The notes under the pieces were generated by a model. It was given only the letters and a program-made list of their open reading frames with translations, searched no databases and was not told where the DNA came from. From Candidatus Omnitrophota bacterium (lineage in GTDB: Bacteria > Omnitrophota > Gorgyraeia > Pluralincolimonadales > Pluralincolimonadaceae), in NCBI GenBank assembly GCA_041651455.1, contig JBAZJG010000007.1, positions 2,478 to 66,477 of the forward strand: a stretch of DNA of 64,000 nt. Direction: 5' to 3'. The position numbers and the translations under genes were made by a program. Positions 1-21,748 of this stretch are shown here, in pieces; positions within the stretch are counted from its first letter, which is position 1, and each line of letters begins with the position of its first letter.

Positions 1-663
1 GCCGTTTCGGAGCGGCCGAGCTCCTTCGTGAGCTTGCGCTGTGCAAGATTGATATCCCTTTTTGCCTGCGTGACATCGTACCTGGCCTGTATGAGGTTCG
101 CTTCTTCCGTCATGAGCGAACCCTTATTCTCCTGGCCCGATTCATAACGCAGCGTCACCAGCTCGTAATTTTGCCTGCGGCGCGTATAGATCTCTTCCTT
201 TATGCGCAGCCCGTCCTGCGCCTTTAACAGTTCTATGAAAGCTGTGCGAAGCCGCAGCCGGACGTCCGACGAGGTAAACCTGTAGCTTTCCTGCGCCGCC
301 TTTATATTTTCCGCGGCCGCGTTTACCTTGTTCGCGGTATTGAATCCGTCGAATATGAGTTGGCTGCCGTTCACGCCGTAATTATAGTTATTTGTAGAGC
401 TGCTTGATGCGCCCGAGGCGCCGCCCGAGCCGCTCTTTGACTTAGAAACGCCCGCGTCGGCCGATACCTGCGGGAAGAGCCCGCTTGCGGTAATCGATTT
501 GTCCGCCGAGGCGCTGTTGACCGATTCCTTCGCCGAGACGAGGTCTGGATTGTTCTTCGCGGCCTCCTTGACGCAGTCCTCCCACGTGAACGCCTCTTCG
601 GCCGGGGCGGACGCGCACGAAAGCGCCATTGAAGCGGAAATCATGGCTAATAGGATCTTATTT
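1..663 (-). CDS. TolC-like outer membrane efflux protein, partial (N-terminal part only; C-terminus lies beyond the window start)
   Basis: The minus-strand reading frame is open from 663 to the window edge. Translation begins MKNKILLAMISASMALSCASAPAEEAFTWEDCVKEAAKNNPDL: a signal peptide followed by the conserved OEP/TolC N-terminal motif (L/T-x-E-D/E-x-V/I-x-x-A-x-x-N-N-P-D-L). The gene lies 10 nt downstream of the AbrB-like gene on the same strand. The provided ORF track omits it because it has no in-window stop. Confidence 0.55.
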
Positions 664-672
664 TTCATTATT

Positions 673-912
673 TTAGATCTGGCTCTTTAACCTTGACAGT
701 ACTTTTGTCGCTTCCGTAAGGAAACGGTTGAATTCCTGCGCCGGGATAAGCCCTATTGGGCCGTCCCTCCTTGAAACGACAATAAGCTTGTCGCCGGATT
801 TGATATTACGCTTCTTGCGTATATCGGCCGGTATGACGACCTGGCCCCTTTCGCCTATCGTCACTACGCTGTGGAATTCACCTGCCGGGCCTTCTATCGC
901 ATTTTCTTTCAT
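673..912 (-). CDS. AbrB/MazE/SpoVT-family small DNA-binding protein
   Basis: The 79-aa product contains GQVVIPADIRKKRNIKSGDKL, the looped-hinge-helix AbrB-type domain signature. A GGAGG Shine-Dalgarno sits 5 nt before the ATG. Confidence 0.6.
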   Translation of the reverse strand: MKENAIEGPAGEFHSVVTIGERGQVVIPADIRKKRNIKSGDKLIVVSRRDGPIGLIPAQEFNRFLTEATKVLSRLKSQI

Positions 913-936
913 CTTTACCTCCGAAATGTATGATTA

Positions 937-968
937 GTATGATATATCATACATTTCAGACTGTCAAG
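937..968 (-). promoter_or_regulatory. sigma70-type promoter (TTGACA-17-TATCAT) with an overlapping 16-bp perfect palindrome GTATGATATATCATAC, upstream of the AbrB-like gene
   Basis: On the minus strand, TTGACA (plus 962-967) is followed by a 17-nt spacer and TATCAT, then 16 nt, GGAGG and the ATG. The palindrome at 937-952 overlaps the -10 element and is a candidate autoregulatory operator. Confidence 0.5.
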
Positions 969-1018
969 ACAAAATTCATCCTGTATTGTTCAATTAGACG
1001 CGCCGGAAGGAAAAAGGT

Positions 1019-1531
1019 TTACTTGAGAAATGCCAGCAGGGCCCTGACGATCTCCTCCGGCGACGGCGGGCAGCCGGGGATATGCAGATCTACGGGCAGG
1101 ACCTCTTTGACTCCGCCGGTAACATAATACGATCCTTTGAAAACACCGCCTTCCTTCGCGCAATCGCCTAGAGTTATGACGAATTTCGGCTCGGGCATGG
1201 CTTCGTAGGTCTTACGCAACGCGGCGGCCATATTCCTCGATACCGGCCCCGTTACCAACAACGCGTCCGCATGGCGGGGAGAGGCGACAAAGTCGATGCC
1301 AAAACGCTGGATATCATATATCGGGTTCGTCGTCGCGATTATTTCCGATTCACACGCGCCGCAGGAACCCGTATCTACTTCGCGGATATGGAAGGAGCGG
1401 CCAAACCTCTCTTTGATCCTCATCTTCAGTTCGGGACCCATCGCTTCTATTTCAGGAAGCAATTCCTTTCCCGGCTTGATAGGCCTGGTTAACGTCCCTT
1501 TTCTTGATCTTATCCTAAGTATACTTTTCAT
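1019..1531 (-). CDS. NuoB-like [4Fe-4S] small subunit of a group-4 hydrogenase-like / Ehr complex
   Basis: The 170-aa product carries four Cys in hydrogenase small-subunit / NuoB spacing: SCGACESE, GDCAKE and IPGCPP. It is the last gene of a six-gene minus-strand operon. Confidence 0.85.
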   Translation of the reverse strand: MKSILRIRSRKGTLTRPIKPGKELLPEIEAMGPELKMRIKERFGRSFHIREVDTGSCGACESEIIATTNPIYDIQRFGIDFVASPRHADALLVTGPVSRNMAAALRKTYEAMPEPKFVITLGDCAKEGGVFKGSYYVTGGVKEVLPVDLHIPGCPPSPEEIVRALLAFLK

Positions 1532-1542
1532 CGCCTTCTGTC

Positions 1543-3078
1543 CTATAAGTCATTACCGGAATACGATAGGTCGAAACTCTTATTGCATAACGGGAAGTCC
1601 GGGATTATGTTCCCGAGCACTGCGAAACAAAGCCCCTGCCAGTTCCTGAACGACGGGTCCACTATTTTGCAGCGTTCGATGCGTCCGTCCCGGCCCGTCC
1701 TTATCCATAGCAGGAGCGGCCCCCTCCACGCTTCGACGCATCCTATCGAGAAACCCTCTTTCGGCTCCCGCTTTGTTAACGTCTCCGGCGGTTCCGAGAG
1801 GCTGCCTAGCATAGCCGTCAGCTTTTTTATCAGCAAGACAGAGGCGTCGAACTCGTTGAACCGCACATCCAGCCTCGCGAGGACATCCCCGTCCTCCTCA
1901 ATTGCCGGCCTGAAGCCGCAGGCATCGTATATATCACCGTCGAAGACCGTACGCAGGTCGGAGCGGATCCCCGATGCGCGCGCCGCAAGCCCGGTTATCC
2001 CGAGGTCTGCCGCGGTCTTCTTCTTTAATATTCCCGTATTGTCCACCCTGTCCATGAAGGAGATGCTGGAGCGGAGGATCTCTCTTATCTCGCTGATATC
2101 CTTCTGCGCGAGGTCGAGGGACTTGAGCAGTAAAGCTCTTCCCTCGTCCGGAATGTCCGCCGTTACGCCGCCTACCCTGTTGACACCTTTCAGGTACCTG
2201 CTGCCGGTAAGTTTCCCGTTGAGCGCCAGGAGGCCTTCTTTTGCCACAGATGCCAGCGCGTTCGGAAAGCTGAACCCAACATCCGTCGCGATGCCGCCGA
2301 TATCGTTCGCGTGGTTATACATCCTTTCCAGCTCCAGGAAGATCGCCCTGATTATCCTTGCTCTTCCCGGTACCCTCATACCGCATATTTTTTCAACGCC
2401 GGCGCAAAACGCGTAACTGTAGGCAAAAGCGGAATCACCGGCGATCTTCTCCGTCAACGCAACGGCATCGCGCGTGTCCATGCCCTCGAGCATCTTTTCT
2501 ACGCCGCGATGCGTGAATCCCAAACGCGTCTCCAGGTTTATTATCGGTTCGCCGGCCGCGCTGAACCTGAAATGCCCGGGGCCGATGATACCCGCGTGGA
2601 GCGGGCCGACCGGAACCTCGAATATCCCTTCCCCTTCGACCTTCTTGAAACGGTACTCGCTGCGCTCGCCGGGCGCTTTATGACCTGGCGCCGGAGGAGC
2701 GAAATCCTTGCGCAGGGGATAAAATCCCTCGGGCCATATCTCGTCGTGGAGGGCAAGGCGCCTGGAGTCAGGGCTTCCCTCAAAGCATATCCCGAACATT
2801 TCCGCCATCTCACGTTCGAACAAGCTCGCAGAATACATTTCTTTCGCAAGAGACGGCATCCTCGGATCATTTCCGGGAATGTTTGTCCTCACGATCTCCC
2901 ACCTGCCGGCTTTCCTGTCGAGGAACGTGCAATAGATACGGAAATTCCCGCTCTCCTTCCTTAGGTCCTCCGCAAAATACGCCATCACGGGCGATTCAAG
3001 CCGTTTATGCAGGCCGAGGCATTCCTCCGTGAACCGTCCGGGCTCTACGTCTATATATATCTCGTTATTACGTTCCAT
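1543..3078 (-). CDS. NuoC-NuoD fused 'large subunit' homolog (HycE/HyfG-like) that lacks the [NiFe]-binding cysteines
   Basis: The N-terminal NuoC-like region begins MERNNEIYIDV and is followed by a NuoD / hydrogenase large-subunit region (GPLHAGIIGPGHFRF, LGFTHRGVEKM). Where group-4 hydrogenases have R-I-C-G-I-C, this protein has KIAGDSAF, and the C-terminal DPCxxC is replaced by FDLSYSGNDL. The start ATG at 3076-3078 overlaps the upstream gene's stop (ATGA). The ORF track's longer N-terminus is unlikely to be real. Confidence 0.85.
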   Translation of the reverse strand: MERNNEIYIDVEPGRFTEECLGLHKRLESPVMAYFAEDLRKESGNFRIYCTFLDRKAGRWEIVRTNIPGNDPRMPSLAKEMYSASLFEREMAEMFGICFEGSPDSRRLALHDEIWPEGFYPLRKDFAPPAPGHKAPGERSEYRFKKVEGEGIFEVPVGPLHAGIIGPGHFRFSAAGEPIINLETRLGFTHRGVEKMLEGMDTRDAVALTEKIAGDSAFAYSYAFCAGVEKICGMRVPGRARIIRAIFLELERMYNHANDIGGIATDVGFSFPNALASVAKEGLLALNGKLTGSRYLKGVNRVGGVTADIPDEGRALLLKSLDLAQKDISEIREILRSSISFMDRVDNTGILKKKTAADLGITGLAARASGIRSDLRTVFDGDIYDACGFRPAIEEDGDVLARLDVRFNEFDASVLLIKKLTAMLGSLSEPPETLTKREPKEGFSIGCVEAWRGPLLLWIRTGRDGRIERCKIVDPSFRNWQGLCFAVLGNIIPDFPLCNKSFDLSYSGNDL

Positions 3079-4550
3079 CACGCGCCCCTTATTATCTCTG
3101 ATGCGGCCAGCAGCAGGTCCCTGAAAAATCCCGGCGCCGCAAGGCCCATGGCGCATATCAATAATATCAATATTCCGAATGCGAACTTACCGCTCAACGG
3201 CTCCCCCTCGACCGGCATCCCCTCCGGCTTTCCGCCGAAGGCCGACCGGCTGATATTCAACACTATCGCGCTGAATGCGACGGCCATGAACAACAGCAGC
3301 AGCGCCGCCTGAGGCCAAAGGCCCATCTTGAATCCCGCCAGCAATATCATTATCTCGCTGAAGAATGCTGAGAACGGCGGCGAACCGGTCAGCGCAAATA
3401 CGCCGATAATGAGCATCGTGCCGGCAAACGGCATCGCGCTTATTATCCCGCGTATCTCCCGGATGTTGTGCGATCCGTATTTTTTTACCGCACGGCCCGC
3501 TGCGAAGAACATCAGCGATTTCGCGGCAGCATGGTTGAATATATGGAAAAGCGCGCCGTAAATAGCGACGGTCCCGCCGAACCCGAGTCCTGCCGCAATT
3601 ATCCCTATGTTCTCGACGCTGCTGTAAGCAAGCAGGCGTTTTATATCCCTCTGGACGAGCACGAAACCCGCCCCCACGCCGAGCGACACAAGCCCGAAGA
3701 GCATGAACAGGTTTCCGGTATATCCCGTGCCGATGCAGACGTTTGTTATCGTCGCGAACCTAATTATCGCGTAAATAGCCGTCGGCAGCAGTACTCCGGA
3801 GAGCATCGCGCTTATCGGCGCTAGCGCCTGGCTGTGCGCGTCCGGAAGCCATGTATGCATAGGGACGAACCCCGCCTTTGTCCCGTATCCTACGAGTATA
3901 AAAAGGAACGCTACCTTTAGAATCGACGGGTTCAGGCTGCCCGCGACCGCTGCCATGTCGGTCCAGTTCAGCGACGAGATGCCGCCGTCGCGCGAAGCCG
4001 TATAATAGAACAATATAGTGCCGAGCAAGGCAAGAGTGATGCCTACGGAACAGATTATTATATATTTCCAGGCCGCCTCGATCGATTCCTTCCTGTTATA
4101 GAACCCGACGAGGAACGCCGAGACGAGCGTTGTCATCTCTATCGCTACCCATACCATGCCAAGGTTGCTTACCAGCGGCACGCAGAGCATCGACAGCGCG
4201 AAAAGGTTGAAGAGAGCGTAGTAGGCCTTCGCCTTCCTCTCGCTCATTACCCCGTCTTTCACGTCCGCGGAGATATACCCGATCGAATAGAGCGCCGAGA
4301 TCGAATTGATTACCGATATGGTCAAGATAAAAAACGCGCTTAAAATGTCGGCATAGAAGAACCCGAGGAATGACACAGGTTCGCCGGACTTCAGCAACCC
4401 CAGCGCGAGCGTTACTGCAAGCGCCGCGTTGGCGAAATGCCCCGCCGCGTTAAGCACGCCGAATTTCCTGCTCCTGCCGGCTTTTACTCCAGGCAGGACC
4501 GCGATCCCGGCAAGCACGAGAGGTATTAGCAGTATCGGGAATATCTCCAT
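3078..4550 (-). CDS. NuoM/NuoN/MrpD-like antiporter-type membrane subunit (HyfF-like)
   Basis: The 490-aa polytopic membrane protein has conserved motifs of the complex-I antiporter-like family: WLPDAHSQA(L)AP, SAML(S)G and LLAYSSVENIG. Confidence 0.8.
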   Translation of the reverse strand: MEIFPILLIPLVLAGIAVLPGVKAGRSRKFGVLNAAGHFANAALAVTLALGLLKSGEPVSFLGFFYADILSAFFILTISVINSISALYSIGYISADVKDGVMSERKAKAYYALFNLFALSMLCVPLVSNLGMVWVAIEMTTLVSAFLVGFYNRKESIEAAWKYIIICSVGITLALLGTILFYYTASRDGGISSLNWTDMAAVAGSLNPSILKVAFLFILVGYGTKAGFVPMHTWLPDAHSQALAPISAMLSGVLLPTAIYAIIRFATITNVCIGTGYTGNLFMLFGLVSLGVGAGFVLVQRDIKRLLAYSSVENIGIIAAGLGFGGTVAIYGALFHIFNHAAAKSLMFFAAGRAVKKYGSHNIREIRGIISAMPFAGTMLIIGVFALTGSPPFSAFFSEIMILLAGFKMGLWPQAALLLLFMAVAFSAIVLNISRSAFGGKPEGMPVEGEPLSGKFAFGILILLICAMGLAAPGFFRDLLLAASEIIRGA

Positions 4551-4551
4551 A

Positions 4552-5190
4552 TCAGCCCTTCAGTTCCGTAAGTTTGTCCACATCTATGTGCGTGAAAAGC
4601 TTGTTTATCTTGAACACGAACACGCCGAGAATTATTACGACGAGCAAAATGTCGAAGAATATCGCTATCTCGACTATGAACGGCATCCCGCCCGATACGC
4701 TGGCGGCCGCGAGGAACATCCCGTTCTCCATGACAAGAAGTCCTATTATCTGCGCTAGCGCCTTCATCCTCGCCATCATGAGGAAGATACCTATCATCGT
4801 CACCGAGAGAGAGACAAAGAACGCGCTGTTCTCGAACTCCCCGGGCAAAGACAATATCTTTCCGGTAAAAAGGTACGCCATATACGAGAGGAGCACCGCC
4901 GCGAATATGGAGACGGTCGGGTTTGCCGAGAGGCCGAGGTCCTCGTTTACCTTTATCCTGCGGGCGACCCTGCACAGGAAATTCGGCACAAGAACCACCT
5001 TTATCGCGAACAACATCGTCGTAACGAAATACAGCTGGGTGGAATTCTCCCTGAACGCGAGGATGAATGTCAGCAGGAACAGGAAGAACGATTGCGCCCT
5101 GAAACCGAATATCAGCGCGGACATCCTCTTCGCGGCGACCATAGCGAATGCCATCATCAGTATCCCGAAAAGTATCAGCCCTACCGCCAT
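4552..5190 (-). CDS. HyfE-like small membrane subunit (extended NuoK-like)
   Basis: The 212-aa highly hydrophobic protein is similar in size to hydrogenase-4 HyfE. It lies 2 nt from its neighbours. Confidence 0.65.
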   Translation of the reverse strand: MAVGLILFGILMMAFAMVAAKRMSALIFGFRAQSFFLFLLTFILAFRENSTQLYFVTTMLFAIKVVLVPNFLCRVARRIKVNEDLGLSANPTVSIFAAVLLSYMAYLFTGKILSLPGEFENSAFFVSLSVTMIGIFLMMARMKALAQIIGLLVMENGMFLAAASVSGGMPFIVEIAIFFDILLVVIILGVFVFKINKLFTHIDVDKLTELKG

Positions 5191-5191
5191 T

Positions 5192-6067
5192 TTAAAACCC
5201 CATCGCGGAGATGACTACCGCTATTACCGAGAGCACGAATGAAAAACTCATAAGGTCCACTACCCTGAAAAGGCGCATCTTTGCCATCGATACCTCCAGC
5301 ACCGCGACCGCTATCGCTATCGCGGCCATTTTGGCCGCGTAATTGCCGAACGGTATCGCGACCGCCGCGATCACCGAGTAGAACAGCACCTGCTTGATGT
5401 GGGAAGCGAGCTCTATGAGCGCGAGTGAACGCCCGGAATATTCAAGGACCATCGCTTCATGCACCATCGTCAGTTCGAGGTGTGTCTCCCTGTTATCTAC
5501 GGGAATGCGCGATGTCTCCGCAAGGGTAACCACGAAGAGCGCGCCCGCCGCCACGAGCGATGATAGCTTCAGTGTTTCCACAGACGCGACCGCCCGAGGC
5601 GTCGTCGATCCGGCTGCCAACGATACGGCGAATACGGCAAGCAGGACGACCGGTTCCACCAAGCTCGATATGAACATTTCCCTCGACGAGCCCATGCCCC
5701 CGAAGGAACTTCCCGCATCGAGCCCGGCAAGCGCGATGAAGAACCTCCCGAGCGCAAGCAGGAAAACGAGCGCAACTAGGTCTCCCGCGCTGTCAAATGA
5801 TATGCCCGGGCCGAATGCCGGTATCATGAACAGCGCCGCAAGTACGGTGCCCAGGACGATATACGGAGTGCATGTGAATACCCACGATGTGTCTCGCGAC
5901 ACCGCCTCTTCCTTGCGGAGCAATTTCGCGAGGTCATAATAAGGCTGGAATACGCCGGGGCCCTTCCTGAGCCTTATGAAGTTCTTCAGCTTCCTTATAA
6001 ACCCGGTTACCAGCGGCGACACGGCTATAAGCACCAGCGCCTGCAATATGACCAATGGATCCCTCAT
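5192..6067 (-). CDS. NuoH/HycD/HyfC-like membrane subunit
   Basis: The 291-aa product contains LIRKLKNFIRLRKGPGVFQPYYDLAKLL, which matches the NuoH/HycD conserved N-terminal motif (RKGP...QP..D..KL). Confidence 0.8.
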   Translation of the reverse strand: MRDPLVILQALVLIAVSPLVTGFIRKLKNFIRLRKGPGVFQPYYDLAKLLRKEEAVSRDTSWVFTCTPYIVLGTVLAALFMIPAFGPGISFDSAGDLVALVFLLALGRFFIALAGLDAGSSFGGMGSSREMFISSLVEPVVLLAVFAVSLAAGSTTPRAVASVETLKLSSLVAAGALFVVTLAETSRIPVDNRETHLELTMVHEAMVLEYSGRSLALIELASHIKQVLFYSVIAAVAIPFGNYAAKMAAIAIAVAVLEVSMAKMRLFRVVDLMSFSFVLSVIAVVISAMGF

Positions 6068-7854
6068 CAGAACCTTCCCATGAATATCACGAGCAACACT
6101 ATCGTCACGAATATATACGCCACGTAAACATGTATGCTGCCCGGCTGTATCTTCTTGAGCTTCCTCGCTGCGATGAACAATAAACTTACCGCGGGCGCGT
6201 AGATATATTTCCTGAAGACCGGCGTCGTGAAAACCTCATATTTGAACGACCGGACATGGTAGAACGAGTCCCTTATCTTTTCGGTCTTGCTGTAGGGCAT
6301 CAGGAAGAAACTGAAAGCTATTCGAAGCGGCTTCGAAAACGCGGTCGCGCTGTATTCATTCCGCGGGCTGAGCTTGTAATACCCGCAATCCCACGTATTG
6401 CACTCGGCGGCTCTCCTGTTCCTCGCTGCATAGCAGCAGGACGCGGCGAACACCAACACTGCGGCGGCTATCCAATTCGTCTTAATAAAGAATGATATCG
6501 GCGCCTCACCGGCCGGCACCCCCATAGCGAAACCCGCTATTACCGAGATATATTTTACCGCGAACGGCGCTCCGAGGCCCAATGCCAGTGCCATCAACGC
6601 CAGGAACGCCATCGGCGCTTTCATCGATAACGGCACTTCCTGCGCCGACTGGGCCGCTTTGCTCCTGGGTACTGCGAGGAACGTTATGCCGAACGCCTTG
6701 ACAAAGCACGCGGCGGCCAGCCCTCCCGTGAGCGCAAGCAGCGCCGCGCATACGCAAAGGAATATCTTATAGCTGCCGCCCGAATTGACCGCTCCGTAAA
6801 AGAACGCCTGCAGCGTCAGCCATTCGCTAACGAACCCGTTGAATGGCGGCAGGCCGGATATCGCTATCGATCCAGCGAGGAACACCGCCGCCGTGACGGG
6901 CATCTTCTTTATGAGCCCGCCGAGGTGCTCGATGTTGCGCGTTCCGGTCGCCTTATATACCGCGCCCGCGCCGAGGAAAAGCAATCCCTTGAATACAGCG
7001 TGGTTCAGCAGGTGGAATAGCCCGGCGCAAAGCGCCATTACCGCGAGCGCCGGCATGCCCATCTTCATGAATACCATCGACGCGCCGAGGCCGAGCATTA
7101 TTATTCCCATGTTCTCTACGCTGGAATAGGCAAGGAGTTTCTTAAGGTCCTGCTCCATCAGGGCATACATTATGCCGGCAAGGCACGACACGAGCGCTAG
7201 AACCAGCACGAGGTTGCCCCACCATTGGGGCCCGATACCGAGCGTCAGGAAAACGAACCTTAACAGGCCGTATACGGCGGTCTTGATCATCACGCCCGAC
7301 ATTATGCTCGAGATATGGCTTGGCGCCTGCGGGTGGGCGTACGGGAGCCAGACGTGCAGGGGCACGATCCCGGCCTTTGTCCCGAAACCTATGAGGAATA
7401 ATATGAAAATTATGTCTTTTATGTTTGCCGGTATCGATGCGGACGCAGCCTTCATCGCTGCGATATCGAATGAGCCCGCGTAATTGGACATTATAAGGAG
7501 GGCTGCCGTCATGAACGCCGTGCCGATATGGGTCATCACGATGTATATCGTGCCGGCCATTACGGACCTTTCATGCCGGTGGTCGATGACAACGAGGAAA
7601 TACGAGGCCAGCGACATCAGTTCCCACGCGACTAGAAAGACCAGCGCGTTCCCCGACGTGACGACGAGCGCCATGGACAGCACGAATGCCGCCAGGAGCG
7701 CCCATAGCAATGCCTTCTTTCCCCTGCCGTACTCTCCTCTCATATACCCGACCGAATATATTGCGGCCGGCGCCGAGACGAGAAGTATCACAAAAAGGAA
7801 AAATAAAGACAAAGGATCTGTCAGTAAAGTGTAATTAACACCTAATAGTTGCAT
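6067..7854 (-). CDS. NuoL/HycC/HyfB-like antiporter-type membrane subunit; first gene of the operon
   Basis: The 595-aa product contains WLPYAHPQAPSHISSIMSG and LLAYSSVENMG, antiporter-like family motifs. The stop/start overlaps the next gene at 6067. Confidence 0.8.
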   Translation of the reverse strand: MQLLGVNYTLLTDPLSLFFLFVILLVSAPAAIYSVGYMRGEYGRGKKALLWALLAAFVLSMALVVTSGNALVFLVAWELMSLASYFLVVIDHRHERSVMAGTIYIVMTHIGTAFMTAALLIMSNYAGSFDIAAMKAASASIPANIKDIIFILFLIGFGTKAGIVPLHVWLPYAHPQAPSHISSIMSGVMIKTAVYGLLRFVFLTLGIGPQWWGNLVLVLALVSCLAGIMYALMEQDLKKLLAYSSVENMGIIMLGLGASMVFMKMGMPALAVMALCAGLFHLLNHAVFKGLLFLGAGAVYKATGTRNIEHLGGLIKKMPVTAAVFLAGSIAISGLPPFNGFVSEWLTLQAFFYGAVNSGGSYKIFLCVCAALLALTGGLAAACFVKAFGITFLAVPRSKAAQSAQEVPLSMKAPMAFLALMALALGLGAPFAVKYISVIAGFAMGVPAGEAPISFFIKTNWIAAAVLVFAASCCYAARNRRAAECNTWDCGYYKLSPRNEYSATAFSKPLRIAFSFFLMPYSKTEKIRDSFYHVRSFKYEVFTTPVFRKYIYAPAVSLLFIAARKLKKIQPGSIHVYVAYIFVTIVLLVIFMGRF

Positions 7855-7894
7855 CTTTCCTTGCTTTTTTTGGTTATTTAATAGATGGGATTAT

Positions 7895-7932
7895 ATTATA
7901 GGACGTGCCGGCCTGTTTGTCAAGCCGGCACG
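7895..7932 (-). promoter_or_regulatory. Consensus sigma70 promoter (TTGACA-17-TATAAT) for the Ehr-like operon, with an inverted repeat (CGTGCCGGC...GCCGGCACG) over the -35 element and spacer
   Basis: The minus-strand reading is cTTGACAaacaggccggcacgtccTATAATat. The -35 lies at plus 7918-7923 and the -10 at 7895-7900, giving a leader of about 35 nt to the ATG at 7854. A 9-bp GC-rich inverted repeat at 7904-7932 overlaps the promoter and is a possible operator. Confidence 0.5.
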
Positions 7933-7960
7933 GTATTGCGGCCCTGTTTATTCTACGCCT

Positions 7961-8359
7961 TTAATTGCACTTTATCGGCGATCCGTCATCCTGCACTGGG
8001 GCAGGCCCCTTCATGCCGCCCTTCATCATCGGGCACGGCATCTTGCCTTCATTCATCATTCCGCCCATACCTTGCTTCATCCCGCGCATTCCCTGCATAT
8101 CGCCCCTCATGCCCCCCATCATGGGGCGCTTATCCTGCATGTTACCCATCATCGGGCATGAAATCGGGCTGGCTCCGGTAACCAGTATCGATATACCGGC
8201 TACCGCGATGACCAACGCTACCGTAATGAGCACCGCGCCTACGAATTTCCCGAACGACTTTACCTTTTCCGGAGCTTTCTCCGCCGTCAATAAGACAAAA
8301 TAGCTTACCGCCAGCAGGAGGCTCATCCACATAAGTGTTATTATCCCTACTAATGCCAT
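7961..8359 (-). CDS. Small membrane-anchored methionine/glycine-rich protein (possible soft-metal binding)
   Basis: The 132-aa product has two predicted TM helices, then PMMGNMQDKRPMMGGMRGDMQGMRGMKQGMGGMMNEGKMPCPMMKGGMKG, which contains 12 MxxM/MxM-type motifs and 3 Cys. A strong SD (AAGGAGGGCAAGGAG) directly precedes the ATG, and the start lies 16 nt after the hcp stop. The overlapping plus-strand ORF 7965-8303 is Pro-rich and has no recognisable features. Confidence 0.5.
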   Translation of the reverse strand: MALVGIITLMWMSLLLAVSYFVLLTAEKAPEKVKSFGKFVGAVLITVALVIAVAGISILVTGASPISCPMMGNMQDKRPMMGGMRGDMQGMRGMKQGMGGMMNEGKMPCPMMKGGMKGPAPVQDDGSPIKCN

Positions 8360-8375
8360 CTCCTTGCCCTCCTTG

Positions 8376-10043
8376 TTATCCCAGTATCGCCTTCAGGTCG
8401 GCATCTGGGGTTGTTATCGGCTTGACCCCGAACTGTTCTACCAGCACCTTAAGCACGTTTTGCGAAGTGAACGCCGGCAACGACGGGCCTATCCGTATGT
8501 TCTTTACACCGAGCGAGAGCAGCGTTATGAGTATGCAGACCGCTTTCTGCTCGTACCATGAAAGCACCAGCGACAGCGGCAGGTCGTTCACGCCGCATTT
8601 GAACGCGTCCGCGAGTGCCAGCGCGATCTTGACCGCCGAGTAGGCATCGTTGCACTGCCCTACATCCAGCAGGCGCGGGATGCCTCCGATATTCCCGAAC
8701 TCCAGCGCGTTGAAACGGAACTTGCCGCATGCAAGTGTCAGTATTACGCAATCCTGCGGGACCTTCTCCGCGAGCTCGGTGTAATAATTGCGGCCGAACT
8801 TCGCGCCGTCGCATCCGCCGATCAGGAAGAAATGGCGTATCTTCTTCCCCTTTACCGCTTCGATGACCTTATCGGCTACGCCGAGAACCGCGTTGTGCCC
8901 GAAACCGACGAGTATCTCCTTTTGTATATTATCCTGCGGGAACCCTCCGAGTTCAAGCGCCTTTTTTACCACAGGCGCGAAGTCCTTTTTGTCGAACCCG
9001 GGGATGTGCGCCACTCCGGGCCACGCGACGAGGCCGGTCGTAAAAACCTGCGCCTTGTATGAATCGCGGGGCTTCTGGATGCAGTTAGTCGTGAACAGGA
9101 ACGCCGCCGGGACCCCCTCGAACTCTTTCTGCTGGTTCTGCCACGCCGTCCCGAAATGCCCGGCCAGGTGCTTGTACTTATTCAGCGCGGGATAACCGTG
9201 CGCGGGAAGCATCTCGCCGTGAGTATAGATGTTTATGCCCTTCCCCTCCGTCTGCCGGAGCAGCAGTTCGAGGTCGAGAAGGTCGTGGCCGGTCACGATT
9301 ATTGCCGGGCCCTTCTTAACTCCCAGCTTGACCGCGGTGGGTACCGGGTTGCCGAAGTGCCCCGTATTCGCCTTGTCCAGGAGCTCGAGGCATTTGAAAT
9401 TGACCTTGCCGAATTCCATGTTCATCGCGAGGAGCTCTTCAACGGAAAGGTTGTCTTCGGCGAGTTTCGCGAGCGCCTTATAAAAATATGAATTTACCTC
9501 TTCGTCTTCGAGGCCGAGCACCGACGCGTGGTCGGCATAGGCGGCCATGCCCTTCAACCCGTAAAGCAGGAGCTCCTGCAAGCTGCGCGCGTCTTCATCC
9601 TTCGCGGGCCACGCATGGACTCCTACCTGTTTGCCCTGATCAACGAGGCCTGCCGCACTGTCAGCGGGCTTCCAGTCGGCGGGAGCGGGCAGCTTTCCCG
9701 TAAAATCCTTGCCGTGCTGTTTCTTGTAGGCCTGCAGGAAGAGGCGCTTAACCTTCTCCTTTATCTCATACGCCCGGTTAAGGTATTGCGTGAGCCGTTC
9801 CGGGTCGAAATTAACGTTCGTGACTGTCGTGAAAAGGCCTTCTTTCACGAACAGGTCGACTTCCTTATCCCTTACTGCCAGTTCTCGCGCCATATTGCCG
9901 TAAACGGCGATGCCCTTCAACGCATATATAAGAAGGTCCTGCAATATTGCGGTTTCGGACGTTTTCCCGCACACACCTTGCGCTGTACAACCCGTACCCT
10001 GCGCGGTCTGCTCACACTGCCTGCAAAACATCTTGTTATCCAT
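8376..10043 (-). CDS. hcp: Hybrid cluster protein (hydroxylamine reductase)
   Basis: The N-terminus MFCRQCEQTAQGTGCT..GVCGK is the Hcp hybrid-cluster Cys motif. The 555-aa length also fits. Confidence 0.93.
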   Translation of the reverse strand: MDNKMFCRQCEQTAQGTGCTAQGVCGKTSETAILQDLLIYALKGIAVYGNMARELAVRDKEVDLFVKEGLFTTVTNVNFDPERLTQYLNRAYEIKEKVKRLFLQAYKKQHGKDFTGKLPAPADWKPADSAAGLVDQGKQVGVHAWPAKDEDARSLQELLLYGLKGMAAYADHASVLGLEDEEVNSYFYKALAKLAEDNLSVEELLAMNMEFGKVNFKCLELLDKANTGHFGNPVPTAVKLGVKKGPAIIVTGHDLLDLELLLRQTEGKGINIYTHGEMLPAHGYPALNKYKHLAGHFGTAWQNQQKEFEGVPAAFLFTTNCIQKPRDSYKAQVFTTGLVAWPGVAHIPGFDKKDFAPVVKKALELGGFPQDNIQKEILVGFGHNAVLGVADKVIEAVKGKKIRHFFLIGGCDGAKFGRNYYTELAEKVPQDCVILTLACGKFRFNALEFGNIGGIPRLLDVGQCNDAYSAVKIALALADAFKCGVNDLPLSLVLSWYEQKAVCILITLLSLGVKNIRIGPSLPAFTSQNVLKVLVEQFGVKPITTPDADLKAILG

Positions 10044-10455
10044 GTAGTATCTCCTTTATTGTCACGCCATTTAACTGCGCGACCGCGAACTCCTCGATCG
10101 CTTCCAATCTCTTCCTCAGGAAGCACGCCTTCCTGTTGGGGCATACCTTCCGCTTGAACATGCACTCATTGAGTTTGAACGGCCCCTGGAATATTTCCAT
10201 GACTTCGGTGATAAAAATCCTCTCCGGCGTCTTTGCGAGCCTGAACCCGCCTCCTTTGCCTTTCTGCGACATAAGAAGCTTTGCCGCATTCAGCTTCTGG
10301 AGTATCTTCCTCATGAACGGCCTGGGCATCCCTAACTCTTTTACGAGTTCCGTGACGGTAATAATACCGCCCTTCTCTTTCTTATCGCGCGCCGCCATGT
10401 AACACAGCGCCCTTACCGCGTAATCCGTGTTCCTCGTCACCAGTTTCGTGCTCAT
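10036..10455 (-). CDS. Rrf2-family transcriptional regulator (NsrR/IscR-like) with a Cys triad
   Basis: An N-terminal wHTH (YAVRALCYMA) and a C-terminal NECMFKRKVCPNRKAC motif (three Cys, Fe-S ligands) are present. The gene overlaps the hcp start by 8 nt. Confidence 0.85.
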   Translation of the reverse strand: MSTKLVTRNTDYAVRALCYMAARDKKEKGGIITVTELVKELGMPRPFMRKILQKLNAAKLLMSQKGKGGGFRLAKTPERIFITEVMEIFQGPFKLNECMFKRKVCPNRKACFLRKRLEAIEEFAVAQLNGVTIKEILHG

Positions 10456-10460
10456 GGCTT

Positions 10461-10489
10461 AATGATACCATATTGGTATCTTTTGTCAA
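10461..10489 (-). promoter_or_regulatory. Promoter (TTGACA-16-TATCAT) for the rrf2-hcp unit, containing the 17-bp perfect palindrome GATACCAATATGGTATC (NsrR-like operator)
   Basis: The minus strand reads TTGACAaaaGATACCAATATGGTATCATtaagccATG. The palindrome (plus 10464-10480) fills the spacer. Its half-sites AAGATAC..GTATCATT resemble the NsrR consensus AAGATGC..GCATCTT. The -10 lies about 6 nt from the ATG, so the Rrf2 mRNA may be leaderless. Confidence 0.45.
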
Positions 10490-10495
10490 GCAAAA

Positions 10496-10536
10496 TAAAA
10501 GGGACGGTTCTTGAGCTAATCAATAAACCGTCCCTT
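10496..10536 (-). terminator. Rho-independent terminator after the 188-aa secreted protein gene
   Basis: An 11-bp perfect stem (AAGGGACGGTT/AACCGTCCCTT) with a 16-nt loop is followed, on the minus-strand RNA, by UUUUAUUUUG. Confidence 0.55.
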
Positions 10537-10539
10537 AAG

Positions 10540-11106
10540 CTATTCCTCCCCTAACCTGCGGCTAAGGTAGCCACCGGTAAGGCCGTCTATCGTTGCGGTG
10601 AGTTCTTCTATGCGGAACTCCCTTTCGAGGTATGAGGCGCTTTCCTTATCCTGGATCTTCCCAAGCTGTTTTTGGATCTTTTTTCGCTCGAAGTATGCGG
10701 CGTTAAGGTCGTTTAGGATATCGTTTCTTAGCTGGACCATCAGCTTGGAGCGGGAGTCGATGGAAGTCTGGGCGCTGTTGTAGACGAGATCTCCTAAGTC
10801 CCACTTGGCGGTAAAGTCCCAGCTGCTGCTGGTGTCATCCGGACCTATGTAATAGTTGGTCTTACCGGAAAGCGTGGCTGCGGTAACAGTTGCGTCGATA
10901 TCGTTGCCGTATCCAACGCTTATCTCGGGGAGTAGGGCCTTCATTGCAGCTTGCTTGCGCCAGGTTGAGATCTTGTCCGGGCTGACCTCTGCATACTTTA
11001 TGGCGGCCTTCTGGAGCTCCTGGATGGTGGGCTCTTCCTGCGCCTTGGCCTGTATCGGTAGGAATAGAACTATACCTATTATGACTGCAGGTGCTATACG
11101 TCTCAT
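10540..11106 (-). CDS. Hypothetical secreted protein with a single TolC/OEP-like repeat
   Basis: A signal peptide MRRIAPAVIIGIVLFLPIQAKA is present. The segment TIQELQKAAIKYAEVSPDK...ALLPEISVGYG resembles one repeat of outer-membrane efflux proteins. GC content is lower than in the flanking genes. Confidence 0.4.
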   Translation of the reverse strand: MRRIAPAVIIGIVLFLPIQAKAQEEPTIQELQKAAIKYAEVSPDKISTWRKQAAMKALLPEISVGYGNDIDATVTAATLSGKTNYYIGPDDTSSSWDFTAKWDLGDLVYNSAQTSIDSRSKLMVQLRNDILNDLNAAYFERKKIQKQLGKIQDKESASYLEREFRIEELTATIDGLTGGYLSRRLGEE

Positions 11107-11166
11107 TCTTCTTATCTCCTTTCTGAGGTAATAGACGTAGATTATGAGGAAATTCTTTCAATTATC

Positions 11167-12069
11167 TTATCTTGACCGCTGTTCTTCCCATTCCCTGTAT
11201 CCGGGATAGACAGGGCCCAGTTCTTCGACCTCCCCAGCCTCAAGGTTGCGCAAACCATCGGGTTGGATATAGTAATCAAAACCATTCCTTTGCAGACGCA
11301 TCTTTCCATACTTTCCATTCGGAGTTATGAAATAACAATAAACATCTCCGTTGTCCTGCTTTCTATAATAATCATCCCACTTTATTGTGCTGACATAACC
11401 CGATTCCGGGGCTTCAGTCATCCATTCATATTTAGCATAATAATAATTTGATTCGATTTTATGTTTAGGATAACCTTTATAATAGACAAAGCCGCCCGGC
11501 TCTTTCATCGTATAAACAATCTCATCTTTGTCATTATATGTTCGTGTTAACCATACGGTATCGTCCTCATCAACAGGGAAGTACCATAATTTATTGAATG
11601 ACCATCCGTATTTCTTGTCTTCTGAAAACATATGGTATGGCACAAATGTATCAACATGCTGAAGCCTAGAAGGAACTCCCTTCTTGACGAGCCGGATCAT
11701 TAAATCTTTCGCGATTATCTTACCGCCTTTCTCGTATTCAGATAATTCTACCACATCCCCATGATATCCTTCCTTAGATGCTCTGATTGTGCAAAATGTT
11801 GCATCCGGCAGTTTCCAATCATACGTGCCATTGTAAAATACCTTCTCGTTCGTCTTTTTATCGGATGTAATTTCATCGTAAAATTTGCTTCTAACTACAT
11901 CCGGATATGTCACATTTTCAAGCTCGGCAATAAGGGTAACTTCGCTTGTGATCAGACTCCCATTCTGATCAACGATCTTGCCCGAGATTTCAATCTCGTT
12001 CAGAAATTGAAAAGCATACGTATAATTTCCAAATAGTACAAGAATTCCCATAACCACATATTTGTACAT
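11167..12069 (-). CDS. Hypothetical secreted protein (AT-rich island)
   Basis: The 300-aa product has signal peptide MYKYVVMGILVLFGNYTYA and an N-terminal CarbD_reg-like stretch (ISGKIVDQNGSLITSEV). It is rich in Tyr, Lys, Asp and Glu. The gene starts 1 nt after the stop of the 1060-aa gene. Confidence 0.45.
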   Translation of the reverse strand: MYKYVVMGILVLFGNYTYAFQFLNEIEISGKIVDQNGSLITSEVTLIAELENVTYPDVVRSKFYDEITSDKKTNEKVFYNGTYDWKLPDATFCTIRASKEGYHGDVVELSEYEKGGKIIAKDLMIRLVKKGVPSRLQHVDTFVPYHMFSEDKKYGWSFNKLWYFPVDEDDTVWLTRTYNDKDEIVYTMKEPGGFVYYKGYPKHKIESNYYYAKYEWMTEAPESGYVSTIKWDDYYRKQDNGDVYCYFITPNGKYGKMRLQRNGFDYYIQPDGLRNLEAGEVEELGPVYPGYREWEEQRSR

Positions 12070-12070
12070 A

Positions 12071-15000
12071 TTACCTCCTTATCAATATGTTTTTTAAAAT
12101 TAATGTATCATAATATTCAACTACATCATAATAATACTCATTTCCAATACTTAAATGATCGCGAATACCGTAAGGATGAACAGTATTTGGACCATATCGA
12201 ATGCTATCAAAATTTGATATTTTAGATTTTATGTCCTGGCCTCCTAATCCTCCCGATTTACTTATTTCAAATCTGTATCCACCCACATTTAAATAATCAT
12301 ACATATCATGTATAGGAAGCAGTATATACTCATCGTCTAAGGGCACCGGTAATCCGTATTTCCCTAATATACCGGACCACCATACTCCTTCCAGATCCCG
12401 CTTGAAAAGATCGATTATTTTGTCACCTCTATAATATAAGTTGTACATGATGCCTGTGATATTATTTTCTATCGAGGGCACATACATGTCCTTATAATAA
12501 TCTATTTCGGGTCTACTCGCATATGCGTTGCCTGGCACGGCTACCTGTGCCAGGAATACGTTATCAACTAATCCTTTCTTCCCTTGCGTTGCCAATAAGC
12601 GGAGAGCATATGAAATAAGATTTCCTCCTAACGAATGGGCAAGAATATTTATTCTGGCATTCTTGTATTCGCTTTTAGTATCCTCTATTATGTCGGCTAG
12701 AACCTGTCCGGTCTGAAATGAATTTACCCACTGATTATCGAATAACATTTTTGGATTATCAAGCCCACCGAGTCCCTCTTCAGTATCCCACGAAAACCCG
12801 ATAAAGCCACCTCTATAACCGGACCAATATAGACGTTTATATATTGTATTATTCCACTCGATTGCACTCTTCTTTGGCGTCCAAGCGCCGTGTATGAACA
12901 TTATTATTGAGGATGGATCCTTCATAAACATATCGTGTTTTTCTACACTTATATTGCGGTACCTCAGCTGTCCATCCATGTCAATGCTTGTGCCGCCCCT
13001 AACATCTACGAATCTATACATATCCCTTACATTTTTCACAGTAATATATACTTCGTCTAATATGATTTCTTCCTTCTTTTTACCATTGCTGAATTCTACC
13101 GCAAGTATAACCTTTAGCCGGCCGGGCTCCACCCCCTCAAATAGTGCGCAAAAGTCACCGTTATCATCGAAATATTTGGGATCAAGCTCTTTTTGATCTT
13201 TTGCAGAAAGGTTAAGAACAACTGTCTTTCTGTATTGTTCGATTGATGAATTTAGATCTTTCAGGTAAGTAAAATACATTAAATCCTTTAAATCTTTTAC
13301 TCTTTCAAATAATTTTATTCTGCCTGTTCCCTCTGCATTTAATTTATATTTTATTCCCTTATCCTGGCCTATCCATTCTTTGATATTCGGTACTGATATA
13401 TTAATCGGCATAAAATCTTCTAAATCGCGGATACCGTTTATGTTCCCATCGGCGCTGTCATTGCCCTTGCTATTTACTGCATCTTTATCATCCTGATGAA
13501 CCGGAGAATCGTCATAATCGTCATCATCATTCACCCAAAACACGCACCCGGGCTCGTTTTGCTCGACGGCGTTGTCCTCGCCGCCGAGGAAGCCGTCGTT
13601 GTTGGAGTCGATTAGGATATCGCCAGTAATACCGTATTCTACGTTCGCACAAAATAGCCTGGTGACGGGACCTGGACTAGAGGCAAATCCTGGATATAAA
13701 GGAGCGTCTATAACTAGTTGGAAATCTTTATCGGGATTATCGTTATCAAATACTACATATGTATGCAATGGCTTACACAGGTTCAGCGGCTCTTTCTTAA
13801 TAAGAGGTTCGGACAAGTACCCCATGCTTATCCCATTTGCCTTATATCTGCTAACATCTAAAGGCACATTCCACCAATTCTTGTCCATCCAAAACATATT
13901 AGATGTCTCAATAAACCAGCAATCTTTAAATATGATCGTATACTTATTTGTTTGTTTGGGTGGGCTGTGCAAGGTCATATTAATAGTATCCTCCCTTGTG
14001 GCTCCGTCCTGTACGTTAAAAAGACTGTCATGAAGAAAGAAGCCCCCTGCTATCCAAGGATAACTACCTATCGAATAATATGCTGTTCCTCTATCGTAAT
14101 AATTGTAGCGGCCGTGGTTGTTTTGATGGGTGTTAGTTGAATATATGGGGAATATGTCCCTCGTATCGTATTTTACATCTGCCCATCCTGCAAACGGTGA
14201 TTCTTGAAGAAAATCAGAATTATATGCGTCGGTATTATAATAATCATAATCCTCTGGTACTATCACGTATTCGCCCGTAAGCGGACTTAATACGGATCTT
14301 TCCACGTGTGTCCTGTTATTAGTGGATGAATACACAAATAACTGATAGTAGTTGTAAACTATCCTGTCCTCATAGGACTTTCCCGTATCCAAAGTAACTT
14401 TAACTTTTAGTATATTTTCCCCCGAATGCGTATTAGGGTCTACCCTCATCAGTATGTATTTGGGCGAATCAGCATTGACGTTATATTCTCTGGCTTTGCC
14501 CGGGCAGATGAGCATTGGACCTTCAAATGTTCCCGCCGGCTTGTTGAGTGCGCAGGGCTGGCCGTTGACGGTAATCGAGGTTATGCCTGCATTTAAATTG
14601 AATCTACCGCCTATCTTTAATTCCTTTTCGGTAATTACCTGGCCGGAGTACGGGGAACTGAATACAACGTCCTGATCTTTCCCCTTCTGGAGCTCCTTTG
14701 GTTGCTCTATCCGGCGTTCTGTCCGTGTTGAAAGCTTCTTCTTCGGAGGCGCCGTATAGCCTTCCGCTGCCGCGCCTACATCAACAACAGGCCCATCGGA
14801 TATCCTGCCGCCTCCCTGCATTGGCCCGCCCGGCTCTGAATATACCGAATACGACACCAGCCTCCTCCTACCGTTTGTATCTGCCATTGATATAAGGAAG
14901 GTATTAAGGCCTTCTTTTAACTGCAGGCGGCTGAATTCAAAGTTATTATCCTCTATTCTCGCTTCCGTTCCCTTGATGCTTACAGATTTTATCTGGAAAT

Positions 15001-15253: not shown

Positions 15254-15404
15254 TGCTATTTTTTATGTCATTATATAATAGACGTAAATCTATAAATATT
15301 TCTTTCAAATTTTATAGTCCCTTTAAATAGCAATATATTCCTCTTTACAGCTCCCCTCTCCCCCTGTATAATTACGTATAATTCAAAATTGGGGGTTGAG
15401 AAAA

Positions 15405-21745: not shown

Positions 21746-21748
21746 TTT

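Follow-up and report, generated by a model that had tools for sequence, protein, structure and literature searches.

To our knowledge, the complexes of the energy-converting hydrogenase-related (Ehr) class have had no function assigned to them since they were named about 20 years ago. They are described as phylogenetically close to the group 4f [NiFe] hydrogenases, as missing the CxxC motifs and as being of unknown function (PMC10284858), and have been reported from Margulisbacteria and Saganbacteria (PMC6349859), from bacteria of the candidate phyla radiation (CPR; PMC7304191), from ammonia-oxidizing archaea (PMC10432482), from Geobacter (PMC7894505) and from Nitrospira. Here we analyze a minus-strand operon at positions 1019-7854 of a 64,000-nt stretch of DNA (the window) from contig JBAZJG010000007.1 of a Candidatus Omnitrophota bacterium. 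A preliminary description of this DNA had proposed a six-gene, group-4 hydrogenase/complex-I-like operon of the Ehr class, with NuoL-, NuoH-, HyfE- and NuoM-like subunits, a NuoC-NuoD fusion and a NuoB-like small subunit. This gene content was borne out by Pfam and NCBIfam scans (E-values from 1e-183 to 1e-28) and by BLASTP against E. coli K-12 proteins, from which the subunits were named. The operon is almost certainly an Ehr complex that descends from a group-4f-type, Hyf-like [NiFe] hydrogenase, has kept the six-subunit core HyfB-C-E-F-G-I, and has lost the [NiFe] site, the HycF/NuoI clusters and, in its Omnitrophota/Saganbacteria/Margulisbacteria subclade, the proton-donating Glu of the β1-β2 loop.

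The six genes are co-directional, their ends abut or overlap, and they follow the order hyfB-C-E-F-G-I. For every Ehr subunit the best E. coli match was the Hyf or Hyc counterpart, not the Nuo one, and the cassette corresponds to the hyf order minus hyfA, hyfD, hyfH (NuoI-like) and hyfJ. The start codon of ehrL is the ATG of MERNNEIY, which overlaps the ehrD stop; a 537-aa open reading frame (ORF) beginning at 3156 is an artifact of ORF calling. The N-terminus of EhrA is ~40-65 residues shorter than that of HyfB and of other Ehr lineages, with an NCBIfam match that begins at model position 71, and the C-terminal half of EhrC is ND4L/NuoK-like, with a weak match to Pfam Oxidored_q2. The Ehr proteins of a syntenic contig (L001) were 81-99% identical to those of the window, and the ratio of non-synonymous to synonymous substitution rates (dN/dS) between the two ranged from 0.01 to 0.11 over all six genes (0.11 for EhrL and 0.07 for EhrS).

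The large subunit, EhrL, aligned continuously with E. coli HycE (PDB 7Z0S chain E; phmmer E = 5e-60) across both metal-binding motifs. The two stretches singled out in the preliminary description, KIAGDSAFAYS and FDLSYSGNDL, read exactly as claimed, and all four Ni/Fe ligands of HycE (C241, C244, C531, C534) are replaced (A213, S216, S505, G508). The protein ends three residues past G508 and has no C-terminal extension for protease processing. Residues G214 and D215 were invariant in 121 close homologs, and the sequence PDFPLCNKSF[DN]LSY[SPA]GNDL was near-invariant and terminal in 120. On this reading, [NiFe] group-4 hydrogenase activity is ruled out, and the complex is predicted neither to make nor to consume H2. 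A frameshift or sequencing error hiding the CxxC motifs was also considered and is excluded by the continuous HycE alignment, by the occurrence of the same motifs in 120 homologs and by the dN/dS of 0.11.

An AlphaFold model of EhrL reached a mean predicted local distance difference test (pLDDT) score of 91 and a predicted template modeling score of 0.93. When the model was compared with solved structures using Foldseek, the best match was HycE (7z0s_E), with a template modeling (TM) score of 0.93 and a root-mean-square deviation of 2.6 Å, followed by NuoCD of complex I (TM 0.83-0.88); neither phmmer nor Foldseek found an Ehr structure in the PDB. The sole segment of EhrL with pLDDT < 50 is the β1-β2 loop, in which E193 of HycE serves as the proton donor to the active-site Cys in hydrogenases (PMC9474812). 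This position is Gly or Pro in 9/9 loci of the window's subclade and Glu in 77/78 other family members, Cys-less and Cys-containing alike. The substrate-proton pathway of HycE runs through R478, H284, E437 and R395, with S283 and D529 in the canopy (PMC9474812). Its first four residues correspond to EhrL R452, H256, E409 and R367, kept in at least 76/78, and the canopy residues to N255 and D503. The quinone ligands of complex I are absent, Ile165 and Gly214 standing in place of Nqo4 His38 and Tyr87. EhrL matched Pfam PF00346 (E = 4e-35) and the NCBIfam NuoD model (E = 1e-59), and the NuoD and NuoH model scores were far under their curated cut-offs. As a side observation, four cysteines of EhrL (C20, C50, C470, C498) are fixed across all, or almost all, of the Omnitrophota/Saganbacteria/Margulisbacteria subclade, and the same positions vary elsewhere (mostly A, Y, V/Y and I). 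Two of the four belong to the NuoC-like domain and the other two are close to the former L2 motif, and together they might form a new metal site.

The small subunit, EhrS, has Cys residues at the positions that bind the proximal [4Fe-4S] cluster in HycG and NuoB (C57, 1363-1361; C60, 1354-1352; C124, 1162-1160; C154, 1072-1070), in agreement with the four-Cys site originally proposed. It has neither a ferredoxin domain nor a NuoI-NuoB fusion, and the ferredoxin motif CxxCxxCxxxC is absent from all six frames of window positions 1-12000, as expected from the claim that a NuoI/HycF-like subunit is lacking. A NuoI/HycF-like subunit and electron-donor genes just past the window start had also been named as a finding that would refute the claim. 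The syntenic contig L001 continues with AbrB, TolC, HlyD, MacB and MFS genes and has no NuoI-like or donor-enzyme gene past that point, and a NuoI/HycF gene hidden nearby was rejected on both grounds. The proximal cluster site is retained, and the complex is predicted to hold at most one Fe-S cluster.

The best matches (86-94% identity) came from Candidatus Omnitrophota metagenome-assembled genomes (MAGs), and a band at 53-68% identity comprised other Omnitrophota, Saganbacteria, Margulisbacteria and one Planctomycetales MAG. A profile-free search of 1.8 billion cluster representatives retrieved 873 clusters below 1e-30. Among the best 150 of these, ~100 were Cys-less, with the replacement signature [SA]-G-D-[STE] and N-K-S-F-[ND]-L-S-Y-[SA]-G-N-D-L, and 22 kept all four Cys, with the signature ERxCG[VA]C and PLINKSFELCY[SA]CxDR. 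A scan of one genome per species placed the Ehr family in at least 599 species, including aerobes, strict anaerobes, CPR bacteria and archaea; its loci include Nitrospirota, Acidobacteriota, Rokubacteria, Chloroflexota, Bacillota, Actinomycetota, CPR phyla, Thiobacillus, Methanosarcina and Thaumarchaeota. Nearly all related loci, in which ORF starts are mechanical calls, carry the same cassette in the order A-B-C-D-L-S or S-A-B-C-D-L. In Nitrospirota (L025 and L067), a single contig bears two complete Ehr cassettes in tandem, with large subunits that belong to different subclades (SSSG and STSG types).

In a rough neighbor-joining distance tree without support values, the Cys-less large subunits formed one clade, which includes Nitrospira, CPR bacteria, Thaumarchaeota and Saganbacteria and in which the window's subclade is distinct. 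Cys-containing proteins were basal, and the nearest four-Cys relatives carry the motifs ERxCGxC and NKSFELCYxCxDR; their naming as group 4f is taken from PMC10284858, with whose placement of Ehr beside that group the tree agrees. The assignment to the Ehr class made in the preliminary description holds, given that the nearest relatives come from lineages with published Ehr (PMC6349859) and that the Cys-less clade stands beside four-Cys relatives. The link to the founding EhrL/EhrS of Geobacter sulfurreducens is by literature naming only (PMC7894505). The window operon is an additional member of this already named class, contributed by an uncultured Omnitrophota organism.

Comparison across the family revealed a series of cofactor losses. 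The HycF/NuoI-like module takes four forms. In L019, L041, L070 and L083 a small gene of its own, placed between L and S, encodes it. Seven Cys-less and two Cys-containing loci have it fused to the N-terminus of the small subunit with both CxxCxxCxxxC motifs complete, and in Acidobacteriota and Thaumarchaeota the fusion is degenerate. In the fourth form it is reduced to an N-terminal motif of only ~20 residues, MFxIxKKxxKTGxVT, which scored 20-32 bits in Nitrospira-type EhrS (background maximum 5.8-8.9). A NuoI-NuoB fusion in Ehr has been noted before (PMC6349859), and the N-terminal motif of HycF is an amphipathic, lipid-binding helix in all solved complex I relatives (PMC9474812). Within the window's subclade this motif was detectable in L016, L007, L014 and L004 (11-29 bits; background maximum 8.9). 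A vestige of it suspected by eye at the N-terminus of the window EhrS (KGTLT vs. KTGxxT) scored 0.3 bits, was not significant and was rejected.

Cys residues of the proximal cluster have been lost in 8/84 small subunits, which fall into two separate clades (L038, L045, L047, L057, L058, L074, L079, L080). These cluster-less subunits show the patterns DTDN, TCDD, DCGD and SEGD and come from CPR bacteria, Thermoleophilia, Bdellovibrionales, Methanosarcina and Dehalococcoidales; we met no mention of such a loss in the Ehr literature cited here. The cluster-less lineages retain the pocket signature, and in a Methanosarcina pair (L058/L079) dN/dS was 0.04-0.13 in every subunit, which argues that cofactor-free Ehr is functional and that its pocket is constrained independently of electrons. 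Judged by sequence, then, Ehr without any redox cofactor is predicted to be a functional, selected complex.

The membrane arm carries the residues expected of an ion-translocating machine. In EhrA, E78, K160, K191, H285 and E344 occupy the canonical positions of transmembrane helices 5, 7, 8, 11 and 12 and are kept in 62-69/69 relatives; Glu of helix 5, Lys of helix 7, His of helix 11 and Glu of helix 12 (E78, K160, H285, E344) are found in 69/69. The corresponding residues of EhrD (E138, K225, H340, E399) are kept in 69-78/78. EhrB carries the E-channel and the loop between helices 5 and 6 (ND1), and its R34, R129, E138, D191, E198, E204 and E209, which correspond to NuoH R46, R148, E157, D213, E220, D223 and E228, are present in 60-62/62 relatives. 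The C-terminal ND3-like loop of EhrA (W488-D-C490-G) conserves WxCG in 67-69/69 relatives, its Cys corresponding to HycC C537. The partners of that loop, HycD F122 and HycE H188, whose roles have been described (PMC9474812), have their counterparts in EhrB F122 and EhrL H161. Taken as a whole, the residues indicate that selection maintains, intact, every element by which the complex I superfamily couples the head to ion translocation, and that the redox-active substrate site alone is gone.

We tentatively favor, with a probability of roughly 0.4, the reading that Ehr is an ion translocator (H+ and/or Na+) whose transport needs no redox-substrate turnover in the old active-site pocket. A pair of antiporter-type subunits forms the membrane arm together with the NuoH-like E-channel subunit and the HyfE subunit, and this arm would move ions as in Mrp antiporters and complex I. 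The rebuilt pocket of EhrL (S/A-G-D-S/T and N-K-S-F-D-L-S-Y-S-G-N-D-L-COOH) would be polar and still be reached by the conserved proton path. The EhrL head, tied to the membrane by four conserved interface loops, would serve for coupling and gating, as a module that undergoes protonation or binds cations. The single [4Fe-4S] cluster of EhrS would be a structural remnant or a redox sensor rather than a wire to a catalytic site, and might adjust transport in line with the ferredoxin pool's redox state. The gene content, the missing ligands, the conserved residues for pumping and coupling, the purifying selection and the family's series of cofactor losses are shown by the sequences; that ions are moved, which ion and in which direction, and what the cluster does are our inference.

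Several observations speak for this proposal. Among them are the missing catalytic and electron-input cofactors, the low dN/dS with near-invariant replacement motifs, the intact residues for transport and coupling, and the stepwise loss of cofactors in the family. The pocket signature and the membrane arm show the same conservation whether a lineage has three clusters, one or none, and clusters were lost repeatedly; the most parsimonious shared function would therefore be ion translocation without electron delivery to the pocket. The spread of the family over at least 599 species, from aerobes to CPR bacteria and archaea, fits a housekeeping ion function better than it fits one redox couple. 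In addition, no redox partner gene is linked to the cassette. The preliminary description had recommended a search for conserved neighbors that might supply electrons; all-against-all clustering of 618 flanking ORFs from ~85 loci, in which only recurrent clusters received family names, returned only generic families, each in at most 12 loci, and no conserved electron-input neighbor.

Other observations weigh against it. The cluster Cys residues are kept in the whole subclade and in 76/84 loci, which argues that the cluster matters, and seven Cys-less loci keep the full three-cluster wire, which suggests that electron flow persisted after loss of the NiFe site at least in those seven. A pure antiporter such as Mrp needs no head, and the Ehr head is as conserved as the membrane arm. 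We know of no transport assay, ion-binding site or structure for any Ehr. The clade structure rests on the rough neighbor-joining tree described above. Finally, Geobacter Ehr subunits rise on formate (PMC7894505), a hint of a redox link.

A redox-driven ion pump is possible and a close second to our favored reading. Reduced ferredoxin, from fermentation or from the neighboring HydABC, would dock on the face of EhrS bared by loss of the NuoI-like subunit and reduce the lone [4Fe-4S] cluster; an electron would pass to an acceptor yet to be named at the EhrL/EhrS/EhrB interface, and H+ or Na+ would be exported via EhrA and EhrD. In Pyrococcus MBS, the closest analog, the proximal cluster itself reduces polysulfide. 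In favor of such a pump are the conservation of the cluster Cys throughout the subclade and in 76/84 loci, the two extra HycF-type clusters of some Cys-less Ehr, and the conservation of the proton path to the pocket and of all the coupling loops. A ferredoxin-linked HydABC is encoded ~12 kb away in the same organism, and Ehr is expected in the literature to link redox reactions with the translocation of charge (PMC6349859). Nevertheless, no acceptor is evident. The ligands for quinone have been replaced as given above, and the donor Glu of the β1-β2 loop is Gly in the subclade, so that protonation of a substrate in the pocket is unlikely. Moreover, cluster-free lineages keep the same pocket under purifying selection, and conserved partner genes are missing.

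A more radical view, which we regard as possible though less likely than not, is that Ehr complexes are not oxidoreductases at all, the head having lost its redox role and become the part of an ion-gradient-driven transporter that binds protons or cations and serves for coupling and gating. Their history would be a stepwise reversal from a redox-driven pump toward an Mrp-like antiporter, with loss of the NiFe site, then of the HycF clusters, then of the β1-β2 Glu and then of the proximal cluster; with its one remaining cluster, the window complex would stand late in this series, as an intermediate.

A supercomplex in which an unlinked formate dehydrogenase with NuoE/F-like subunits, or another dehydrogenase, docks on the head and feeds it electrons is improbable. 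Such an arrangement was proposed for Margulisbacteria and Saganbacteria (PMC6349859); it would agree with ancestry near formate hydrogenlyase and Hyf and with the observation that Geobacter Ehr subunits are most abundant on formate (PMC7894505). However, the window ORFs scanned (from about 130 aa upward between 10 and 24 kb, and from about 230 aa upward past 24 kb) included no fdhA-like gene and no Rnf or quinone biosynthesis genes, and no formate dehydrogenase-like neighbor was among the clusters recurring in at least 3 of the ~85 loci. The formate hydrogenlyase set FdhF, HycB and HycF was found neither among these window ORFs nor as recurrent neighbors of related loci. The connecting clusters of HycB and HycF, which dock FdhF in formate hydrogenlyase (PMC9474812), are missing here, and the NuoE/F-like genes of the window belong to HydABC.

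More improbable still is a ferredoxin:quinone oxidoreductase, that is, a minimal analog of complex I/NDH-1. The matches of EhrL to PF00346 and to NCBIfam NuoD and the NuoH-like subunit of the cassette would suit it, and Omnitrophota genomes have been scored with "complex I" from PF00346 (PMC10066038). On the other hand, the NuoD scores all lie far under the curated cut-offs, the ligands of the quinone head group are missing, NuoI, a separate NuoA and a recognizable NuoJ are lacking, each subunit is nearer to Hyf/Hyc than to Nuo, and related Ehr-bearing lineages have no quinone biosynthesis (PMC6349859). A decaying or pseudogenized hydrogenase operon, or an artifact that hides the CxxC motifs, has the missing catalytic residues as its sole support and is refuted by six intact ORFs with dN/dS of 0.01-0.11, by motifs shared with 120 homologs in a family of at least 599 species and by the continuous HycE alignment.

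The coordinates of the operon and of its principal features are collected in Table 1.

Table 1. Features of the ehr operon, in window coordinates.
Feature	Position	Strand	Description
ehrA	6067-7854	minus	595 aa; HyfB/NuoL-like, antiporter-type; NCBIfam "hydrogenase 4 subunit B," E = 1e-183; 38% identity to HyfB
ehrB	5192-6067	minus	291 aa; HycD/NuoH-like membrane anchor; Pfam NADHdh, E = 3e-39; 33% identity to HycD, 36% to HyfC
ehrC	4552-5190	minus	212 aa; HyfE-like; NCBIfam "hydrogenase 4 membrane subunit," E = 6e-28; 29% identity to HyfE
ehrD	3078-4550	minus	490 aa; HyfF/NuoM-like, antiporter-type; NCBIfam "hydrogenase 4 subunit F," E = 1e-140; 45% identity to HyfF
ehrL	1543-3078	minus	511 aa; NuoC-NuoD fusion, former [NiFe] large subunit; 32% identity to HycE
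ehrS	1019-1531	minus	170 aa; HycG/NuoB-like small subunit; Pfam Oxidored_q6, E = 1e-32; 45% identity to HycG
Former L1 motif	2416-2448	minus	KIAGDSAFAYS vs. HycE RVCGICGFAHS (RxCGxCxxxH); A213 and S216 at Cys positions
Former L2 motif and C-terminus	1546-1575 (stop to 1543)	minus	FDLSYSGNDL-stop vs. HycE LDPCYSCTD (DPCxxCxx[HR]); S505 and G508 at Cys positions
β1-β2 loop	2563-2607	minus	GPLHAGIIGPGHFRF; Gly166 at the HycE E193 position
ehr promoter, sigma-70-type	7895-7923	minus	TTGACA 7923-7918, 17-nt spacer, TATAAT 7900-7895; 12/12 match to consensus
GC-rich inverted repeat/hairpin	7905-7931	minus	GTGCCGGCTTGACAAACAGGCCGGCAC; arms GTGCCGGC...GCCGGCAC; direct reading

The promoter and the GC-rich inverted repeat overlying it were both found as first proposed. 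The -35 hexamer lies within the loop and stem of the hairpin; the 76 nt around it gave an RNA fold of -27.3 kcal/mol (z = -3.2), and no T-run follows. Promoter, hairpin and 5′ leader are identical in L001, and the spacer just upstream has diverged and contains an indel. From its sequence, the hairpin may be a terminator or stabilizer of the upstream hcp unit, or an operator. A second promoter (TTGACA-17-TATCAT; 967-939, minus strand) was found downstream of ehrS, before an AbrB-like gene and an outer-membrane efflux gene, and the ehr operon therefore ends at ehrS. The ehr genes are an autonomous cassette with its own promoter.

The AbrB/SpoVT-type regulator (673-912, minus strand; 79 aa) matched the NCBIfam "HgcAB-associated HgcC" model with a score of 48.9, below the cut-off of 70. 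It is followed by a TolC-like gene (1-670, minus strand), to which L001 adds HlyD-like and MacB-like genes. An IS200/IS605-type Y1 transposase gene lies between ehrS and the AbrB-like gene in L001 (12138-12713), L002 and L003, and the window is without it.

Upstream of the operon lie a Met-rich ORF, hcp and an Rrf2 (NsrR-like) gene, as the preliminary description had it; the distance to HydABC is ~12 kb, not the 10 kb given there. The Met-rich ORF (7961-8359, minus strand), between hcp and the ehr promoter, encodes a protein of 132 aa, in which two N-terminal transmembrane helices are followed by a Met/Gly-rich tail bearing two CPMM motifs. It had zero Pfam or NCBIfam matches, a copy with 75% identity was seen solely in L001-L003, and it may be a metal-binding (possibly Cu) or Hcp-associated membrane protein. 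A role in nitrosative or redox stress, or in ferredoxin-coupled ion translocation, had been guessed from this neighborhood. That guess found no support: the three genes adjoin the ehr cassette solely in the near-identical contigs L001-L003 and in none of the other ~85 loci, the ehr flanks vary from lineage to lineage, and the cassette has its own promoter. We have accordingly rejected hcp and Rrf2 as a conserved functional link.

The neighbors of ehr that recurred were histidine kinases, response regulators and ABC transporters, together with an ArsR-type regulator in 10 loci and a SulP transporter in 3. In Rokubacteria-type loci L034, L065 and L072, an ArsR-type helix-turn-helix gene stands directly upstream of ehrS on the same strand. 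The SulP-STAS anion transporter gene (L029, L064, L083) is directly upstream of ehrA in two MAGs, one from Thiobacillus and one from Terriglobia, and in Ectobacillus it lies close to a four-Cys relative. Elsewhere in the window, HydABC lies at 19994-24332 and HydE/G/F at 15931-19620, and these [FeFe]-type HydE/F/G proteins were the sole maturases seen in the 64 kb; the remaining genes encode signaling proteins, porins and housekeeping functions. The stretch from rrf2 to hydE (~10500-15900) has a GC content of 0.385-0.46, vs. ~0.54 elsewhere, and is possibly an acquired island. Its ORFs include some without family matches and one for a protein of 1060 aa that carries a DUF900 alpha/beta-hydrolase domain.

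Ehr is widespread, with nitrifiers, acidobacteria, acetogens, methanogens and CPR bacteria among the at least 599 species. As its operons match the Pfam families of complex I and hydrogenases, it may be miscounted as "complex I" or "hydrogenase" when the metabolism of uncultured phyla, Omnitrophota for one, is reconstructed. A survey of Omnitrophota scored "respiratory complex I" by PF00346 (PMC10066038), a family that EhrL also matches, and Ehr may have been counted there as complex I. A complex that has all the coupling elements and has lost the redox chemistry amounts to a natural experiment on communication between head and membrane arm, and the cofactor-loss series predicts transport without electron transfer. 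Culturable or genetically tractable bearers of Ehr include Methanosarcina, Geobacter, Acetobacterium and Thermincola.

The window complex shares with published Ehr its subunit types, the NuoC-NuoD fusion, a large subunit without CxxC and the unknown function, and its relatives (Saganbacteria, Margulisbacteria, Nitrospira, CPR bacteria and Thaumarchaeota) share one Cys-less clade. In Margulisbacteria RA1A and in Firmicutes, NuoI and NuoB of Ehr are fused (PMC6349859, Supplementary Note 4), whereas the Ehr of the window is without a ferredoxin core, and its subclade differs from other Ehr in having Gly for the β1-β2 Glu, a shorter EhrA N-terminus and the cysteines C20, C50, C470 and C498. Among Cys-containing proteins, the closest relatives are the group 4f [NiFe] hydrogenases (putative "Ehf"), which have the same six-gene cassette, no C-terminal extension, and the motifs GP[IV]HAGIIEPGHFRF, PL[IV]NKSF and THLELTM in common with the window. 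Unlike the window protein, they keep all four Cys (ERxCG[VA]C ... ELCY[SA]CxDR). A small subunit was recovered for eight of them; in most of these, one or more HycF-type cluster motifs persist, either fused or in a gene of their own, and two are without any, like the window.

E. coli Hyf and Hyc (formate hydrogenlyase-1; 7Z0S) agree with the window operon in the order hyfB-C-E-F-G-I, in subunit identity of 29-45%, in the coupling loops and in the proton path, and Hyc is the best match among solved structures in both sequence and fold (E = 5e-60, TM 0.93). In contrast to them, the window has no equivalents of HyfA/HycB, HyfD, HyfH/HycF, HyfJ and FdhF, no [NiFe] site and no proton-donating Glu. 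With complex I/NDH-1 it shares the NuoB, C, D, H and L/M module and the fold (TM 0.83-0.88), but not NuoI, a separate NuoA, a recognizable NuoJ, the NADH module or the quinone ligands, and its model scores fall below the cut-offs. NuoA- and NuoK-like traces are seen in the ND3/NuoA-like loop of EhrA and in EhrC, which is partly NuoK-like.

MBS/MBX of Pyrococcus furiosus (6U8Y) is likewise a hydrogenase-derived, complex-I-like ion-translocating complex without a NiFe center, and offers a precedent for proximal Fe-S chemistry. It is far more distant (E = 2e-22 for MbsL, 6u8y_L, vs. 5e-60 for HycE) and differs in its subunit set; MBS has 13 subunits, an Mrp module, a NuoI-like subunit and a known substrate. 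Mrp antiporters, finally, resemble the window complex in that EhrA and EhrD are of the MrpA/MrpD type with all canonical charged residues and EhrC is in part NuoK/MrpC-like. They are built of seven subunits (MrpA-G), lack NuoH-, NuoD- and NuoB-like subunits and possess MrpB, E, F and G, which are missing from the window cassette. Although Ehr stands outside the Mrp family, these antiporters would be the closest analog of the non-redox mechanism favored here.

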